Below, piece after piece: positions 29,608 to 46,948 of a stretch of 64,000 nucleotides of DNA. Source of the stretch: an uncultured virus (IMG/VR IMGVR_UViG_3300028805_000097) (taxonomy: Duplodnaviria; Heunggongvirae; Uroviricota; Caudoviricetes). The DNA lies in IMG/VR virus record IMGVR_UViG_3300028805_000097, positions 1 to 64,000 of that record; one strand, written 5' to 3'. The number at the start of each line of letters is the position of its first letter. Within the stretch, counting starts at the first letter, position 1. Position numbers and translations under genes: made by a program. Under the pieces are notes generated by a model. It had not been told where the DNA came from, did not search any database, and saw only the letters and a program-made list of their open reading frames with translations.

Positions 29608-29703
29608 TTCAACCATTAAAAAACATTAAAAAACGGGGTAACATTTGGTTATCTCGTTTTTTTTGTGTATCTTTGCAACAGAAAATAAAAAGATAAACAA
29701 AAA

Positions 29704-34513: not shown

Positions 34514-34613
34514 AGGAGAAGTAGACAGAAAAATGAACGGGTTAGATAAGTTTCTAGCCCGTTTATTTTGTTTTTTAATATTTTTTATATATCTTTGCAT
34601 AAAAACAAAGATA

Positions 34614-36407
34614 ATGGGAAGAAAGAAAAAAGTAACAGATGATTTTACACCTAGCAAATATCAATCAGCCATATTTGACCAGATTCTTCATGGAAACGGT
34701 CACATTGTAGTAGAAGCCGCTGCTGGTGCTGGAAAAACAACAACACTAGTGAAGTGTTTAGAACTAATACCAGAAGACAAACAGGTTCTCATGACAGCAT
34801 TCAATAGGGATATTGTAACTGAATTACAGAAGAAAACGAAAAAATTCAGCAATGTGCTAGTGAAGACGCTTCATGGTGTTGGTCTTGCAATGCTTAATAA
34901 GAATTTCCCAGGACAGATTGGAGGAAATCCAGATGAATATAAGTATATCTCTCACATAAGAAACAATATAAAGGACTATACTACAATCAATCTGAGAAGA
35001 ATATCATCTAAGGATTACTTTAGATACATAAACAACGTAGCTAAGTATGTTGACTTTGGTAGATATTACCTGTGTCAGACTGAGAAGGACTTAGATTTCA
35101 TTGAGGCGAGATATGGTATCGAAACGTTTGCGGATGAGAAGGCAGTTGCAATCAAGATTATGGAATGGGGAAAGCATGTACTTGACCATATAGATTATGT
35201 CGATATGATATGGTTGCCTAATGTGCTTTACTTAAAGCCATTTGGACTTCTGTTTGACTACATTATGGTAGATGAGTGCCAGGATATGAATAGAGCTGAG
35301 AGAGAGCTTGTATTGAAGTGCTTTAAGATGGGTACTAGACTTATATCCGTAGGTGATACAAACCAGATGTTATATTCGTTTGCAGGTGGCGACCCAGAAT
35401 CATTCAATACTCTTAAGTCAATTCCTAATACCGTATGTTTACCGCTTAGTATTTCATACAGGTGTGGAAAGAGCATAGTAGAACACGCCAGAACCATTGT
35501 CCCATCAATCGAATGGAATGAAGCTGGTGGCAGAGAAGGTAAAATACTATATGACGTTCCTCTGGATATGGTAGAGGATGGAGATATGATACTGTGTAGA
35601 AATAATGCACCTCTTGTACAAGTCTATAACGAATTTCTAAAGCTTGGTAAAAAAGCATTTATTAGGGGTAAGGAAATTGGTAAAAATCTTAAGACGCTCG
35701 TGATGAGTATGAAACAGGATGAGATAAATGTTGATTGTAGAAAGGATGGCTTATTTGTAAGGCTCTACGACGATTTATTTATCACTAGGAATAACATTAT
35801 GGTAAGGTCTGGAATAGACGCTCAGACAGCCTTAAAAAACCCTCTAATCGAGAATAAACTGGATATCATCAAGGCACTGGAGATTCTCTCTGAAGGCATT
35901 AATAAGACAGAGGAACTTATTAAGAAAATAGATGAGATATTTCCAAAGGGTGACAAGGGAGAGGGTATAGCACTTTCAACGGTACATAAAGCTAAGGGAC
36001 TTGAAGCTAACAGGGTGTTTATCGTGTGTCCATCACTAATGCCTAGTAAGGCTGCTCAGAAGGACTGGGAAATTCAACAAGAAACCAACCTCATGTATGT
36101 TGCCTACACTAGGGCAAAAGACGTGCTTGGTTTCATTGATGAGAAGGATTTCGATAGTTTTGATACAAATAGTGCAAATAGCACATCAGCACTTGCAAGA
36201 ATAGAATACCAGGTAAACAGGATTCTTGGTAAAACAACGAAGACAATCATCAACGAGAGTTCAGCAAGAGCTATCATAGCCAACGCAAAGCCAGTTGAGA
36301 AGAAGATTTCATCAAGTTCAACCATAAACATTAACTCAACCAGGACAATTAATTCGTTCAATGATATATTTAAAAATAAGAAAAAAATTAAGATAGGAAG
36401 AAGATGA
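34614..36407 (+). CDS. SF1 UvrD/Rep-like helicase
   Basis: AAAGAGKTTT, VDECQD, VGDTNQ, SYRC, STVHKAKGLE, YVAYTRAK; promoter at 34590-34599. Confidence 0.92.
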   Translation: MGRKKKVTDDFTPSKYQSAIFDQILHGNGHIVVEAAAGAGKTTTLVKCLELIPEDKQVLMTAFNRDIVTELQKKTKKFSNVLVKTLHGVGLAMLNKNFPGQIGGNPDEYKYISHIRNNIKDYTTINLRRISSKDYFRYINNVAKYVDFGRYYLCQTEKDLDFIEARYGIETFADEKAVAIKIMEWGKHVLDHIDYVDMIWLPNVLYLKPFGLLFDYIMVDECQDMNRAERELVLKCFKMGTRLISVGDTNQMLYSFAGGDPESFNTLKSIPNTVCLPLSISYRCGKSIVEHARTIVPSIEWNEAGGREGKILYDVPLDMVEDGDMILCRNNAPLVQVYNEFLKLGKKAFIRGKEIGKNLKTLVMSMKQDEINVDCRKDGLFVRLYDDLFITRNNIMVRSGIDAQTALKNPLIENKLDIIKALEILSEGINKTEELIKKIDEIFPKGDKGEGIALSTVHKAKGLEANRVFIVCPSLMPSKAAQKDWEIQQETNLMYVAYTRAKDVLGFIDEKDFDSFDTNSANSTSALARIEYQVNRILGKTTKTIINESSARAIIANAKPVEKKISSSSTININSTRTINSFNDIFKNKKKIKIGRR

Positions 36408-36715
36408 ATACAAACAGAACAAAGAAAGTATTAAAATTTAGTGCTACATGGTGTGCTCCATGCCGCACATATGCCTCAACATTCAAGAAGGTGAGTGAAA
36501 TGGAAGACTTCAAGGATATTACATTTGAGGCAATCGATATTGAAAAGGATGTAGATATGCAACCATTAGTTGAGAAACTTGGCATTAAGTCGATTCCAAC
36601 GACAATACTGTTCGATGAAAACGATAAACCAATATACAAGGTTCTTGGTAACGTACCTCTTAAAGATTTGGTAGACCTTATAAACAGTACTTTAAAGGGT
36701 GAAGAGGAGGAATAA
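36404..36715 (+). CDS. Thioredoxin
   Basis: FSATWCAPC, IKSIPT. Confidence 0.9.
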   Translation: MNTNRTKKVLKFSATWCAPCRTYASTFKKVSEMEDFKDITFEAIDIEKDVDMQPLVEKLGIKSIPTTILFDENDKPIYKVLGNVPLKDLVDLINSTLKGEEEE

Positions 36716-36717
36716 TC

Positions 36718-37578
36718 ATGATTATCGGTTTTGCGGGTCGTATGCGTTCTGGAAAGACAGAACTTGCGAAGGTTTGTGAAGCTATGGGCTATAGAAAGCT
36801 ATACTTCGCACTGCCGCTTAAGCAGTTGTGTGCAGACTTATTGGATATATCAGTTGATGCCCTTAACGATGCTAAAAACAAGGGTGTTGATATAGGTATA
36901 ACAATGGATAACGATATGTGCGAAATACTGTCTGAAGAAACAGAGATTCCGTTGGATATTGTTAAAGAGAAATGTAACGGAAAGGTCTTGAACACTGTAA
37001 GGGAAATGTTACAGTTCATAGGGACAGACTTAATTAGGGAATATAATACAAACTGGCACGTAGAGAGAATACGCTCCATGATTGACACAAACTATGATTA
37101 CGTCATAGACGATGTAAGGTTTAAAAACGAAAAGGCACTCATAGATGAACTTGGTGGGGAGTGCTGGTTTGTTGTAAGACCTACATTGGAGAATGTGTCA
37201 AACCATGAGTCGGAGACCTCATTGAAGTGGCATGATTGCTGGAACAGAATTATAATAAACAATGACACACTCCATTATTTACAATTTAAGTGGGAAACTT
37301 TCATGGGTAACTACCAAAGCTCTTGCGCCCTTAGGGATAAAGAGTTTAACAGAATACTGGAAAATGGTTCTGAGAATGAGATAACCAAGATGTCAACCCT
37401 TGACATGCTCATGTTATCGAAGGATATTTTCACATATTCGCCAATAGAATTTAACGAAGAAAATATAAAGTCTATAGAATCTGCATGGGGGTATGGAGTA
37501 AAGATAACCTATAAGGATGATACATATGAATTCGTGTATAATTCTTTAAACATAGAGGATATAAAAATGCTAGTTTAA
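36718..37578 (+). CDS. Deoxynucleoside monophosphate kinase (T4 gp1-like)
   Basis: GRMRSGKT, FALPLK, REMLQFIGTD, DDVRFKNE, HESE. Confidence 0.85.
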   Translation: MIIGFAGRMRSGKTELAKVCEAMGYRKLYFALPLKQLCADLLDISVDALNDAKNKGVDIGITMDNDMCEILSEETEIPLDIVKEKCNGKVLNTVREMLQFIGTDLIREYNTNWHVERIRSMIDTNYDYVIDDVRFKNEKALIDELGGECWFVVRPTLENVSNHESETSLKWHDCWNRIIINNDTLHYLQFKWETFMGNYQSSCALRDKEFNRILENGSENEITKMSTLDMLMLSKDIFTYSPIEFNEENIKSIESAWGYGVKITYKDDTYEFVYNSLNIEDIKMLV

Positions 37579-37633
37579 CATGATTTAACTAGACATATTT
37601 GTTTTTTCGAAAAAAAATATATAACTTTGCAAA

Positions 37634-38254
37634 ATGAAAGAGAATATTAGTACAAAATATCCAGACGGTTCGAAAATATTTTTTACATCAGACACACATT
37701 TTGGACACGCAAACATCATAGAATTCTGCAACAGACCCTTTAAGGATGTTGAGGAAATGAACTATAAACTTATACAGAACTGGAATGAGAAAGTCCCACC
37801 AGATGGGTTGGTATTTCATCTTGGAGATTTTGCATGGGGTGGATACCCATTCTGGAAGAAGATTAGAGAACAGCTCAATGGTAGAATTATTTTAATCAAG
37901 GGAAACCACGATGAGAAAAATATGACACCAACTGCCGAGCAGGAACTGTTCGACTATGTAACCTTCCAGATGAAGGTGGAAATTGAAGGTAGGAAGGTAT
38001 ACCTTAACCACGTACCATTCCTGTGCTATGGAGGTACGTATCGTGACCCAAAAGGATTAGTATATCAGCTATTTGGTCATGTGCATTCTGGTCCTAATCA
38101 AAAAGGGTTGGATATAAATAGGTTAAACATGTTATTCCCAACACAATACGACGTTGGTGTAGATAACAACGACTATTCACCAGTGTCATGGGGAGAGGTT
38201 GTAGAAAAAATAGGTAAACAGTTGTTGAAATCAAAATTTAAGAAGGAAAAATAA
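37634..38254 (+). CDS. Calcineurin-like metallophosphoesterase
   Basis: SDTHFGH, HLGD, GNHD, GHVH, DVGVD. Confidence 0.9.
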   Translation: MKENISTKYPDGSKIFFTSDTHFGHANIIEFCNRPFKDVEEMNYKLIQNWNEKVPPDGLVFHLGDFAWGGYPFWKKIREQLNGRIILIKGNHDEKNMTPTAEQELFDYVTFQMKVEIEGRKVYLNHVPFLCYGGTYRDPKGLVYQLFGHVHSGPNQKGLDINRLNMLFPTQYDVGVDNNDYSPVSWGEVVEKIGKQLLKSKFKKEK

Positions 38255-38267
38255 AAAGTAGTGGTGT

Positions 38268-38639
38268 ATGACACGAAATGTAAAGTTATCAAGAATTGCT
38301 AAACTAACGTTACAGTTTCTGAAACATAATGGCTTATATGAGGCATACTATAATGAGTTCAGAACCAACAGATATATAAAACCATATTTTTATCAGAAAA
38401 ATGGGTATCTAAAATTTCTGCGTGACAGAATAGAGAATGATGGATGGTATCTATCTGTGCAAGACGATAGAGAACTTGATAGTTATTTCATAAGGTACGT
38501 TCTCTTCAAAATAAATGAGGTTCACATATTACTTAGAGAACCGCCAAGCTATGATGACATATGTTTCTTCTACGATATGGTAGAGTTACATTTCAAGGAG
38601 CACGCCTTACTTGGAGCAAACATATTAGTAAATGAGTAA
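38268..38639 (+). CDS. Hypothetical protein
   Basis: Operon ORF. Confidence 0.55.
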   Translation: MTRNVKLSRIAKLTLQFLKHNGLYEAYYNEFRTNRYIKPYFYQKNGYLKFLRDRIENDGWYLSVQDDRELDSYFIRYVLFKINEVHILLREPPSYDDICFFYDMVELHFKEHALLGANILVNE

Positions 38640-39336
38640 AATATTAATAATCCCAGATGTACATGGTCGTACATTCTGGAAAGATGCCATAGAAAAACAC
38701 GCTGATGAGTGCTCTAAAATAATATTCCTTGGTGATTACCTTGACCCATACCCTTGGGAATTTATAACCAGGAAAGATGCAATAAGAAATTTCGAGGATA
38801 TTATAAAATACAAGCAGGATAACAAAGATAAAGTGATACTCCTACTTGGAAACCACGACCTCCATTACTACGATGACCACTTCAGAACAAGGTCAAGATA
38901 TGATTCAAGTAATGCATATCACATTAAGGAGGATTTTCGTTCACACAAGAGCCTGTTTGATATGGCATACGAGGAAATGATAAATGGGCAGAGATACTTG
39001 TTCACACATGCTGGTGTGTTGAACTCGTGGTATAAGGCACATAAGGACTTAATTGGAGAACTCACAGTTGAAAACCTAAATCACCTCAAGGACATTAAAA
39101 GGGGAATCGAGGTATTAACACAGGTTTCTAGTGAGAGAGGTGGTATGGGAAGAATTGGAAGCATGGTGTGGTCAGACATCAATGAAAAGGGGAATACTGA
39201 AGATATTGATGGTATTTACCAGGTTTTCGGTCATTCCCAGCAAGAAGAACACCCAGTCATAACAAAGACGTGGGCTTGCCTTGATTGCAGAAAAGCATTT
39301 ATATTAACAGAAGATGGAGGATTTCAAGATGTGTAA
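38632..39336 (+). CDS. Calcineurin-like metallophosphoesterase
   Basis: PDVHG, GDYLD, GNHD, THAG, GHS. Confidence 0.9.
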   Translation: MSKILIIPDVHGRTFWKDAIEKHADECSKIIFLGDYLDPYPWEFITRKDAIRNFEDIIKYKQDNKDKVILLLGNHDLHYYDDHFRTRSRYDSSNAYHIKEDFRSHKSLFDMAYEEMINGQRYLFTHAGVLNSWYKAHKDLIGELTVENLNHLKDIKRGIEVLTQVSSERGGMGRIGSMVWSDINEKGNTEDIDGIYQVFGHSQQEEHPVITKTWACLDCRKAFILTEDGGFQDV

Positions 39337-39521
39337 AAAAAGTAAACCAACTAAGAGCACTGAACAGTATAAGATACTGAGAATGATAAGCCGTAACGAA
39401 CAGCTTGAACGTTATGGTGGCGGTCAATTTGTTTCTATGAACCGTGCTTATAAAGACAAAAGTAAATACAATCGTAATGATAAGAAAAAAGAGTTAAGGA
39501 GTGACCTTAACTCTTTTCTTT
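39329..39521 (+). CDS. Small basic protein read into a terminator with no stop codon; ArfA/BrfA-like candidate
   Basis: ..SRNEQLERYGGGQFVSMNRAYKDKSKYNRNDKKK..; ATG overlaps the upstream stop; first in-frame stop is at 39620-39622, inside the convergent gene. Confidence 0.55.
39487..39521. terminator. Bidirectional intrinsic terminator
   Basis: AAAAGAGTTAAGG-agtga-CCTTAACTCTTTT perfect stem with flanking tracts. Confidence 0.85.
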
Positions 39522-39974
39522 TTATCCTCTTCTGTCAAAAACATCTTCTTCATCAACTATTGAAAGATTGGTTATCCTCTCACCAGTCTTGTTTTCAAAC
39601 CAAAGCCATACCTGTTCCTTAGCCTCTTCCTCAATGTCGTTAGTAGGCATATTAGGTGCTGATACTGCAACTTCTATTATGATGTTTACAAACCCATGCT
39701 CATCACGTGTGAGCTGTACGTTTCTAACCAATACCGATACATAGCTCTGCTCTGACTCAATATTCTCGTCTTTTACTGACTGGAGAGTTTGTATAATCTC
39801 TGGAGCAAGTTCATCAAGATAACCACCGACTTCCATTTTCATGATAGAGCCATATGAGTAGTCTGATATGTCATCTTCCTCACTTGGATACCACCTTTCT
39901 CTCAATATCTTCTGTACAGATTCCTTCACAAGCTGGTGAAGGTCACTCTCTGTTAACCTTATAATCTGTTTCAT
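39522..39974 (-). CDS. Putative internal head protein with LTESDL leader
   Basis: MKQIIRLTESDLHQLVKESVQKILRE. Confidence 0.7.
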   Translation of the reverse strand: MKQIIRLTESDLHQLVKESVQKILRERWYPSEEDDISDYSYGSIMKMEVGGYLDELAPEIIQTLQSVKDENIESEQSYVSVLVRNVQLTRDEHGFVNIIIEVAVSAPNMPTNDIEEEAKEQVWLWFENKTGERITNLSIVDEEDVFDRRG

Positions 39975-41362
39975 TATTTATTCCAGTTTTTAGCATTCCT
40001 TGCAAAGTTAGCCTTCTTGACCATTGCAGGGGAGTAATTTTCCTTATTATTCAATACCTTGGAAGCAAACCCCTGTACAGACTCACCATGCTTGTTGGCT
40101 GCTGCTGTAAATGTACCTTCCTTGGATTTCTTTATGTGTATGTCTGACTTCTCTACTATGTTGCTAGTTGGCTCTCTACTCTCCATCTTCTTACCCGACA
40201 TAACCACATTCTGTAGATATTGGTCTGCAAGTTCCTCGTATTCACCACCGTAATGCTCCCAAATCTTTTCATATAGTGAGTTGCCTTCCACTTTTTCCAC
40301 ATATTTCATGAAGCCACTCATACCAATTCTAACACCATACTCGTAACGAAGTTTCTTGAATGCATCCATGAAAAGCTGATAGTTTTTCTTCTTGTTCTCA
40401 TCACGCTCTATCTGACCAGCATATTGCGCCCTCACACTGTCGCCGTTCAAATCCATTGGGTTATATTGGTAGTCACTCTCAAGAATTTTCATTACAGATT
40501 CCTTCACCAAACTACGAAACTCATCACCAGTCATCCTGTATGCAGTACCCTCGCCATAGATTTCATAGTTGTTTCCATCCTCAATCGTAGGTTCATTCAT
40601 TTCTGGCTCTGGCTGCTGTGTTTCGTCACTGTGAGGAGAGAATGTGATACTAGCTTTACACTTTCCACCTTCATCCTTAACTCTAAGTAGACCAAAATAT
40701 GTCATACCGTTGTTTGCATCAAGCTGTACGATATGAGTTGATTCGTTAGGCTCTATTGTACTGAGAGAACCGATGTTTCCAAGAATCTTTCCATAGAACT
40801 CCATAACATCGTTAAGACTACCGAACGTCCTGGTATTAAGCTGACCGTTCTTGGTGAGGTCGTTGATTCTCTTGAATACACCTTTTTCAGTCATTGGTTT
40901 AGTTCCATTGAAGGTTGTCTTGATATTCTCTTCCTTTCTGAAGCCCTCATTAATTCTGTTTGAAAACCTTCTCTTAAAATCTTCCTTCATGGTGAAGTTG
41001 ACAAGGTAAAGATTCCTCTGCATATCTGATAGGAATGACTCACAGTCACTTCTCATACCAGTGTATGTGTCTCCTTCATCCTCAATACTCTTATAGAATG
41101 AGTTTGCGGAATCTAATACATCCTCGACGAATTTTTTCAGCGTCGTAACCTTATACTCCTCTGGCTTAAGTTCACCCTTATCCAAGTTACCAGTAATTGA
41201 CTGTTCAACCTCTGAAACTGTATCCTGGAACTCAGCTATAGTATCAGCTATTTTGTCACAAAGCTCATGCTGTGACAGGCTGTCAGAATCCCAATGGAGG
41301 GACTTAATCGCTGTTTTGTATCCTTCTAGTTTATTTACAAAATCAAGAACTTTCTTATTCAT
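39974..41362 (-). CDS. Dps/ferritin-like N-terminal domain fused to further modules
   Basis: KSLHW..QHELCD..E four-helix pattern; internal LVKESVMKILE; basic C-terminal module. Confidence 0.6.
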   Translation of the reverse strand: MNKKVLDFVNKLEGYKTAIKSLHWDSDSLSQHELCDKIADTIAEFQDTVSEVEQSITGNLDKGELKPEEYKVTTLKKFVEDVLDSANSFYKSIEDEGDTYTGMRSDCESFLSDMQRNLYLVNFTMKEDFKRRFSNRINEGFRKEENIKTTFNGTKPMTEKGVFKRINDLTKNGQLNTRTFGSLNDVMEFYGKILGNIGSLSTIEPNESTHIVQLDANNGMTYFGLLRVKDEGGKCKASITFSPHSDETQQPEPEMNEPTIEDGNNYEIYGEGTAYRMTGDEFRSLVKESVMKILESDYQYNPMDLNGDSVRAQYAGQIERDENKKKNYQLFMDAFKKLRYEYGVRIGMSGFMKYVEKVEGNSLYEKIWEHYGGEYEELADQYLQNVVMSGKKMESREPTSNIVEKSDIHIKKSKEGTFTAAANKHGESVQGFASKVLNNKENYSPAMVKKANFARNAKNWNK

Positions 41363-41384
41363 AATTTATCTTATATTTTTTCTT

Positions 41385-41780
41385 TTATTCATCTGGTGTG
41401 TAATCTTCATCTGGTTTATCATCATCTAAGGCTGCTCTCCTTTTACGTCTTCTTTCAGCTCTAAGGTCATTAAGGTCTTCTTCAGCTTCAATCTGTAGTT
41501 TTTCATTCTCAACCCAGGAACGTGTTTTTAATTTGCTATCAACATAAGCTTTAGGAACGCCACTACCTAGAATATATCCACCACTACAAAGGAGAAATAT
41601 ACCCATATCTGTTAGGTTGGTGTCAACCTTACCATCGTAAACCACATCATATACAAGCACAAAACATATGACAAGTCCAATGATTACACCCATAATGGCA
41701 GATACCAACATGGTTATGCTGTTCACACTCATTGAAGACTTATCGTCTATTGAAGCTTTTATGTTTTTAATTACTCCCAT
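41385..41780 (-). CDS. Two-TM membrane protein, holin-like candidate
   Basis: Two hydrophobic helices, charged C-terminus; TATTTATA box at 41788-41795. Confidence 0.5.
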   Translation of the reverse strand: MGVIKNIKASIDDKSSMSVNSITMLVSAIMGVIIGLVICFVLVYDVVYDGKVDTNLTDMGIFLLCSGGYILGSGVPKAYVDSKLKTRSWVENEKLQIEAEEDLNDLRAERRRKRRAALDDDKPDEDYTPDE

Positions 41781-46872: not shown

Positions 46873-46948
46873 AGAATGTTAAAAATCGGAGTATTATTTG
46901 TATATTCCGATTTTTTTCTGTAACTTTGCCGCAAAAATTTAGTGAAGT

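Follow-up and report, generated by a model that had tools for sequence, protein, structure and literature searches.

The closest described counterparts of the gene reported here are small proteins that rescue stalled ribosomes. The brfA gene carries a rho-independent terminator ahead of its stop codon and encodes 72 amino acids, of which about 62 make up the active form, as described in PMC8012679; the same source describes a stem-loop in arfA, whose message is truncated in Escherichia coli by RNase III or by termination. ArfT, known from Francisella and a wider family, is described as very small, with a charged helix, and as recruiting release factor 1 or 2 (RF1 or RF2; PMC6514570, PMC8012679), and ArfB (YaeJ) as probing the empty mRNA channel with a basic helix at its C-terminus (PMC6514570). 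ArfA, BrfA, and ArfT probably have independent origins, and there may be further small release-factor-recruiting proteins that sequence searches have difficulty in finding (PMC8012679). Here, we analyze a small basic open reading frame (ORF) of an uncultured virus of the Caudoviricetes (IMG/VR record IMGVR_UViG_3300028805_000097; our window is the whole stretch of 64,000 nucleotides from position 1 of that record) that runs without a stop codon through a strong intrinsic terminator. On balance, and by analogy with brfA and arfA, we lean towards reading it as an alternative ribosome-rescue factor of a new family, subject to gating through transfer-messenger RNA (tmRNA) and copied into megaphages. 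The features of the locus are the following:

39329..39622, + strand: small basic ORF of 97 codons, with its ATG at 39329 and its formal stop at 39620-39622
39329..39520, + strand: conserved coding part, residues 1-64, composed of a lysine-rich N-terminus, a predicted helix (13-29), a linker, the basic motif, and the hairpin-coded end
39452..39490, + strand: basic motif KDKSKYNRNDKKK, residues 42-54, holding the invariant Tyr47 and Arg49
39479..39526, both strands: hairpin and T-tract within the small ORF, an intrinsic terminator on both strands
39527..39622, + strand: read-through tail to the formal stop, unconserved and overlapping the convergent gene
39522..39974, - strand: convergent gene of 150 amino acids that shares the two-way terminator

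The segment 39479-39526 folds at -21.8 kcal/mol (z = -5.67), a value equaled by none of 200 shuffles, and a terminator scan of both strands finds a plus-strand stem at 39487-39517 with the tail CTTTTTATCC and a minus-strand stem at 39519-39485, the latter reading serving the convergent gene. Codons 51-66 of the small ORF overlie hairpin and T-tract, with the T-tract ending at codon 66, and the formal stop lies approximately 100 nucleotides inside the convergent gene. The original prediction had described a stop-less run through a strong intrinsic terminator with a formal stop well within the convergent gene, and both descriptions agree in every particular with the coordinates given above. Terminated plus-strand transcripts would thus end within 39479..39526 without a stop codon, and the design must yield stop-less messages wherever the terminator works. 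Our own scan of the 77-kb record recovers 67 terminator-like sites, four of which, on reading the list by eye, are clean hairpins with a frame open for at least 60 codons through the T-tract. For three of these four, a longer ORF in a different frame has its stop ahead of the hairpin, and only the plus-strand hairpin at 39487 falls inside the sole plausible coding frame. A contig from an RNA library spans 38591-39457 with zero differences; none of the listed RNA contigs bridges 39458-39526, with pieces stopping at 39457, 39527, and 39529, but since transcript ends are not visible in contigs and assembly can fail at a hairpin, this gap is no evidence of a transcript end.

The original prediction had asked whether homologs likewise lack a stop ahead of a terminator, and they do in all 120 listed proteins and all 26 phage loci compared. 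A word-indexed search that used residues 1-64 as query returned 204 proteins at E <= 0.01; the 120 listed among them measure 61 to 106 amino acids and lie on contigs that reach 426 kb. All 120 keep the residues encoded by the hairpin (K[KR]E[LF]R, then a two-residue loop, then [LI]xS) and diverge thereafter into tails of 3 to 45 amino acids, 93 of them distinct and unrelated; the search admitted proteins of at most 112 amino acids, which places longer tails outside this sample. The two loop codons vary across 18 different dipeptides among the listed homologs and are never a stop. The 26 phage loci comprise 13 close and 13 distant ones (37% to 61% identity) with 20 distinct hairpin sequences, and the frame is open through hairpin and T-tract in 13 of 13 of each group, with the distant loci carrying a hairpin of different sequence at the same position. 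Between the conserved tyrosine codon and 8 nucleotides past the hairpin, stops occur in the coding frame of 0/26 loci, in the +1 frame of 21/26, and in the +2 frame of 26/26. As far as aligned sequences can tell, the stop-less design is thus conserved and selected across the family.

The hairpin itself bears signs of the same kind. In an alignment of the 13 close relatives, 94.1% of cells are paired and five of the 13 base pairs change on both sides (14 cells), giving a covariation score reached by none of 500 shuffles, and controls with slid pairings contain zero double changes. By these compensatory changes and by the different hairpin sequence at the same place in distant members, the hairpin is selected as RNA.

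The gene product is a basic protein of approximately 62 to 66 residues that belongs to an unnamed small-protein family of the Bacteroidales and their large phages. Across the whole family, no columns but Tyr47 and Arg49 are invariant, with the H, K, K, K, and K that flank them nearly so; the family motif reads HK(S/N)KKxY(D/N)RK and the core DYIKAxRKAxRExE-linker-HK(S/N)KKxY(D/N)RK. An AlphaFold2 model built with 58 relatives (mean predicted local distance difference test score 85.6) places a helix at residues 13-29 and a basic one at 49-63, with an extended stretch between them. The sequence GGGQ of the window protein was considered as a catalytic motif and rejected, as other members read NGGRW, SAGW, or HxRP there, and neither the ORF nor family members match PF00472, the GGQ hydrolase domain of class I release factors and ArfB. 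Own hydrolase activity is therefore unlikely. In Pfam, PHROGs, and NCBIfam, neither the ORF nor its relatives have matches other than scattered weak ones in at most five members, the ESM Atlas holds unnamed clusters only, and the phage collection has no megablast match to 37600-41400. Likewise, profile searches against PDB chains return no rescue-factor chain at E <= 10 (with 7tgh_3B at E 1.2, 6rm3 eS10 at E 0.9, and 6skg_Bo at E 0.11 as chance-level rows), Foldseek against solved structures returns nothing at E <= 0.001, and the best hit of a wide VIA-align search, a 55-residue chain of the Flavobacterium johnsoniae ribosome (7jil_z, Z 2.3, root-mean-square deviation 5.8), is at noise level.

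Beyond phages, the family resides in bacterial chromosomes, and here its genes have two kinds of 3' end. An exhaustive profile search yields 90 cluster representatives at E <= 0.001, and a scan in which each prokaryote species was represented by one genome yields 166 relatives, of which 80 were kept for locus analysis. These are nearly all chromosomal and from Bacteroidota, with cultured members of Bacteroides, Dysgonomonas, Alistipes, Butyricimonas, and Gabonibacter among them, and the family is single-copy in five of five genomes checked. Cultured carriers include Bacteroides cellulosilyticus DSM 14838, B. intestinalis, Alistipes timonensis, and Butyricimonas synergistica. The bacterial copies are all named "hypothetical protein", with no NCBIfam model. 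Two rows labeled as Mycoplasmatota and Eubacteriales metagenome-assembled genomes (MAGs) cluster with a phage row in the tree and may be phage contigs binned with those genomes.

In 50 of the 80 bacterial loci we find the no-stop design, with a hairpin of -9 to -23 kcal/mol that ends 42 to 57 nucleotides past the tyrosine codon and a stop that lies 2 to 936 nucleotides past the hairpin, starting at least 9 nucleotides beyond it in 48 of the 50. The other 30, from Dysgonomonas and allies, have a plain stop 36 to 51 (mostly 39) nucleotides past the tyrosine codon, and 29 of them lack a hairpin of -9 kcal/mol or better there, the exception (L064) having its stop inside a hairpin. The no-stop design is therefore frequent in the family but not universal, and the similar distances from the tyrosine codon imply that proteins ended by a stop codon and by a terminator have nearly the same last residue. 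A tree with just 59 usable columns requires two changes for the stop label and five for the bacterial no-stop label, so that the state of the 3' end has switched more than once. Two individual copies are recorded here as side observations. In a Bacteroides sp. MAG (L043:3001-4119), the ORF is open for 372 codons and in frame with a downstream 2-hydroxyacid dehydrogenase gene, so that read-through would give a fusion. In one genome of the Bacteroidaceae sample (G133:C3:158162-158323, - strand), a strong family match (E 1e-24) has an in-frame TAG and could be either a broken copy or a stop-type variant.

The distribution of the family was compared with those of ArfB, counted by NF006718 matches over its cut-off, and of RqcH, counted by NFACT_N. 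The samples, named after a genome of the respective taxon and given with hypergeometric values that ignore shared ancestry, are the following:

Order of the Bacteroides genome: 301 genomes, family in 24, ArfB in 100, overlap 0, hypergeometric 3.8e-5
Family of the Dysgonomonas genome: 81 genomes, family in 25, ArfB in 19, overlap 0, hypergeometric 2.8e-4
Family of the Alistipes genome: 81 genomes, family in 18, ArfB in 0, overlap 0, uninformative
Family of the Bacteroides genome: 121 genomes, family in 20, ArfB in 0, overlap 0, uninformative

ArfB thus occurs in 0/24 family-positive versus 100/277 other genomes of the order and in 0/25 versus 19/56 genomes of the Dysgonomonas family, and the family's distribution is complementary to that of ArfB in the samples searched. 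RqcH is found in 0/301 genomes of the order sample, with control genomes giving matches. The suggestion of an uncharacterized Bacteroidota family in the original prediction is borne out by the 166 relatives, by the same design in 50 of the 80 kept, and by the lack of co-occurrence with ArfB in these samples.

Among the phages, carriage of the gene goes along with tmRNA in one group. All five complete genomes of close relatives that carry the gene (295 to 412 kb) contain a tmRNA above the Rfam threshold, and ARAGORN finds a tmRNA gene in three of the five with the degradation-type tags GENVDSPAYEYAIAA, GENIDSPAYAMAIAA, and GENVDSPAYAYAMAA. Release-factor domains and SmpB are each found in 0/5 of these complete relatives. 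Five more distant gene-carrying phage records, one of them complete, have no tmRNA above threshold, so that co-carriage is a trait of this phage group and not of all carriers. The source record is a 77-kb fragment estimated to be 26% complete, and neither it nor the window contains a tmRNA above threshold. In the samples searched, ArfB is missing from the likely host family and RqcH from its order. As a side observation, the complete megaphage relatives (L020-L024; G001-G005) have their tmRNA gene among tRNA genes for Met, Ile, Val, Ala, Phe, Asp, and His, and the tags of these megaphage tmRNAs begin with GEN and end with AIAA or AMAA.

Among known rescue factors, BrfA (YqkK of Bacillus subtilis) is closest in design as a small basic protein with a terminator ahead of the stop codon, and it serves as a back-up to tmRNA in a lineage without ArfB, as would be the case here. 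Its 72 encoded and approximately 62 active amino acids compare with 97 encoded amino acids and approximately 62 to 66 before the T-tract in the window, and a terminator before the stop with a product of about 62 amino acids is found in 26/26 phage and 50/80 bacterial loci. Differences are that BrfA belongs to another phylum, that the present family is also phage-borne, and that approximately three-eighths of its bacterial members have a normal stop. A BrfA chain is present in the PDB, and the searches of PDB chains with three family profiles gave no match to a rescue-factor chain at E <= 10.

ArfA (PF03889, of beta- and gamma-proteobacteria) resembles the present family in the stop-less message from a stem-loop inside the ORF, a likeness seen here in sequence design alone, in a 3' end that overlaps a convergent gene (mscL in the case of E. 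coli arfA), and in a basic, lysine-rich stretch with Tyr-x-Arg-Lys. For comparison, arfA of E. coli K-12 (L041:13432-13650) ends 4 nucleotides inside mscL, and RefSeq places yrdG, an "arfA-derived small regulatory RNA", over its 3' end. The truncation differs, being by RNase III or termination in E. coli and by a canonical terminator here. The original prediction had also compared KDKSKYNR to the ArfA motif, and hhalign indeed aligns it with the KGKGSYMRK stretch, setting RVHKSKKVYNRKKT on ArfA's KNKKGKGSYMRKGK, but this alignment (probability 0.4%, E 0.16) is far below significance. PF03889 does not match the ORF and is not among the families listed for 28 members or, in a listing of the first 25 of 34 weak families, for 58 members. 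With no PDB match either, kinship with ArfA is not supported.

The ArfT gene has a normal stop, which parallels the 30 stop-type members, and ArfT is likewise a very small factor; it differs in its length of approximately 40 amino acids, and no Pfam match links it with the present family. ArfB shares a basic C-terminal helix but differs in having its own GGQ hydrolase domain, whereas the GGGQ of the window protein is unconserved in its family. Given the independent origins of ArfA, BrfA, and ArfT, a further unrelated family of the same logic would fit the pattern. In the literature, covered mostly at the level of listings and abstracts, no description of such a factor came up for Bacteroidota or for phages.

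A rescue factor of this kind would work as follows. By analogy with brfA and arfA, transcription would stop in the T-tract and give a message without a stop codon, on whose 3' end ribosomes would arrive and stall. As long as trans-translation has spare capacity, tmRNA would tag the product for degradation; once tmRNA is saturated, untagged protein would build up. With its basic Tyr-x-Arg-Lys tail, the protein probably detects that the mRNA channel of a stalled ribosome is empty, and it would recruit a host release factor to free such ribosomes, a step that would be needed because the protein has no conserved GGQ. In infected hosts, the phage copy would thereby maintain a supply of available ribosomes. 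Chief support for a tmRNA-gated rescue factor comes from the conserved no-stop design, the selection on the hairpin, the chromosomal family, the exclusion of ArfB, the phage tmRNA, the BrfA-like size and design, and the predicted shape. A more specific proposal, which we regard as evenly poised, is that the family is a further independent invention of a rescue factor that measures tmRNA capacity via its own stop-less message, native to Bacteroidales without ArfB and RqcH, existing in gated (terminator) and ungated (stop) forms, and captured by megaphages, some with their own tmRNA.

Several observations weigh against a role in rescue. There is no detectable homology to ArfA in Pfam or hhalign or to any solved chain in the PDB profile searches, 30/80 bacterial members end in a normal stop, and the phage genes sit beside nucleotide-metabolism and not translation genes. 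The lack of tmRNA in the five more distant phage records points the same way. As to ArfB, the hypergeometric values take no account of common descent, exclusivity in the Dysgonomonas family may reflect only one or two events, and the two further family samples (81 and 121 genomes), having no ArfB at all, are silent on exclusivity. Moreover, 177 of the 301 sampled Bacteroidales have neither ArfB nor the family, and RqcH is equally missing from all of them. Part of this would suit a protein whose amount is gated by tmRNA capacity but whose role is not rescue but, for instance, regulation through binding to ribosomes or RNA, or modulation of trans-translation by mimicking the basic tails that probe the empty mRNA channel. 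The no-stop design is equally conserved under that alternative, the missing homology to any rescue factor and the lack of translation genes nearby agree with it, and since the close-relative phages bring tmRNA without SmpB, a protein acting on the pathway is conceivable. However, the exclusion of ArfB (0/24 versus 100/277; 0/25 versus 19/56) is predicted by redundancy with a rescue factor and not by another function, and we consider such a role rather unlikely, if still a serious contender.

We think it improbable that the gene encodes an ordinary small basic protein with no link to tmRNA, for which an operon terminator overlaps the 3' end by chance, read-through suffices, and variable tails are tolerated. 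In favor of this reading, the phage gene is the last of its operon in 12/12 loci inspected, a convergent gene comes next in 10/12, and 30 of the 80 bacterial members function with a plain stop. Yet stops fall into 47 of the 52 other frame-loci of the tested span and none into the 26 coding frames, the loop codons, though freely variable (18 dipeptides), are never a stop, the design has outlasted a replacement of the hairpin sequence, and the tails are unconserved, reaching up to 45 amino acids among the listed proteins and once extending 936 nucleotides into the next gene. In animal mitochondria, stop codons are completed by added A residues, and terminated transcripts of the present gene, which would end in a U-tract, might in principle gain a UAA in this way after transcription. 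We deem this very improbable, as the two studied precedents treat terminated or cleaved messages as nonstop (PMC8012679). Least credible of all is an error of assembly or homopolymer length at the A6 run, or that there is no gene here. The shifted frames do meet TAA and TGA inside the hairpin in the window, but more than 200 homologs from independent assemblies keep the frame, amino acids are conserved down to 30% to 40% identity over different DNA, and the RNA-library contig covering 38591-39457 has no differences. A frameshift at the A6 run was accordingly rejected on the homologs' intact frame and the 0/26 coding-frame stops.

Around the small ORF, the phage operon consists of nucleotide-metabolism genes encoding a metallophosphoesterase, a deoxynucleoside monophosphate (dNMP) kinase, a NUDIX protein, and a ribonucleotide reductase activase. 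Its immediate upstream neighbor in the window is:

38632..39336, + strand: metallophosphoesterase gene (PF00149, E 1.9e-9)

The ATG of the small ORF overlaps the TAA of this gene as ATGTGTAA, with an overlap of 8 nucleotides. A PHROG with the name RNA ligase likewise matches this metallophosphoesterase, in its phosphoesterase part, and a second, different metallophosphoesterase is encoded at 37634..38254. The operon upstream (34533-39336, + strand) further includes a 624-amino-acid ORF read as a UvrD-type helicase and a 103-amino-acid thioredoxin-like ORF, both from translation alone, as well as the dNMP kinase. The convergent 150-amino-acid gene has no Pfam or PHROG family match. The bacterial copies have ordinary chromosomal surroundings; in Dysgonomonas, for example, the gene lies between proline-biosynthesis genes and a carbamoyltransferase gene, a setting conserved in the two neighbor-scanned loci (L112, L061). 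Elsewhere in the 77-kb record, a hairpin of approximately 31 nucleotides (AAnTyGGGGTAAC...) is repeated in at least eight copies, always followed by TTTTGTGTAAC(T) or TTTTCTGTAACT, and could be a terminator-plus-promoter cassette between late genes. Its copies are:

29630-29668, + strand: copy of the repeated hairpin
46883-46921, + strand: copy of the repeated hairpin
61834-61794, - strand: copy of the repeated hairpin
64040-64002, - strand: copy of the repeated hairpin
66075, 69586, 70313, and 72303, - strand: copies beyond the window in the same record

A survey of 1,956 genomes of the Fibrobacterota-Chlorobiota-Bacteroidota (FCB) group found arfB in 1,426, arfA in 0, and rqcH in 404 (PMC11633108, Table 1). 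With no arfA among these genomes, no RqcH in the 301 genomes of our order sample, and ArfB in a third of the latter, the family described here is a concrete candidate for a back-up to tmRNA in Bacteroidales, a major gut order; it is single-copy in the five genomes checked, is present in cultured strains, and has natural variants that differ only by a stop versus a terminator. If the phage-borne gene is indeed a factor of the ArfA and BrfA kind, phages would manage their host's supply of free ribosomes, and megaphages with their own tmRNA would supply a two-tier rescue kit to hosts otherwise dependent on tmRNA only.

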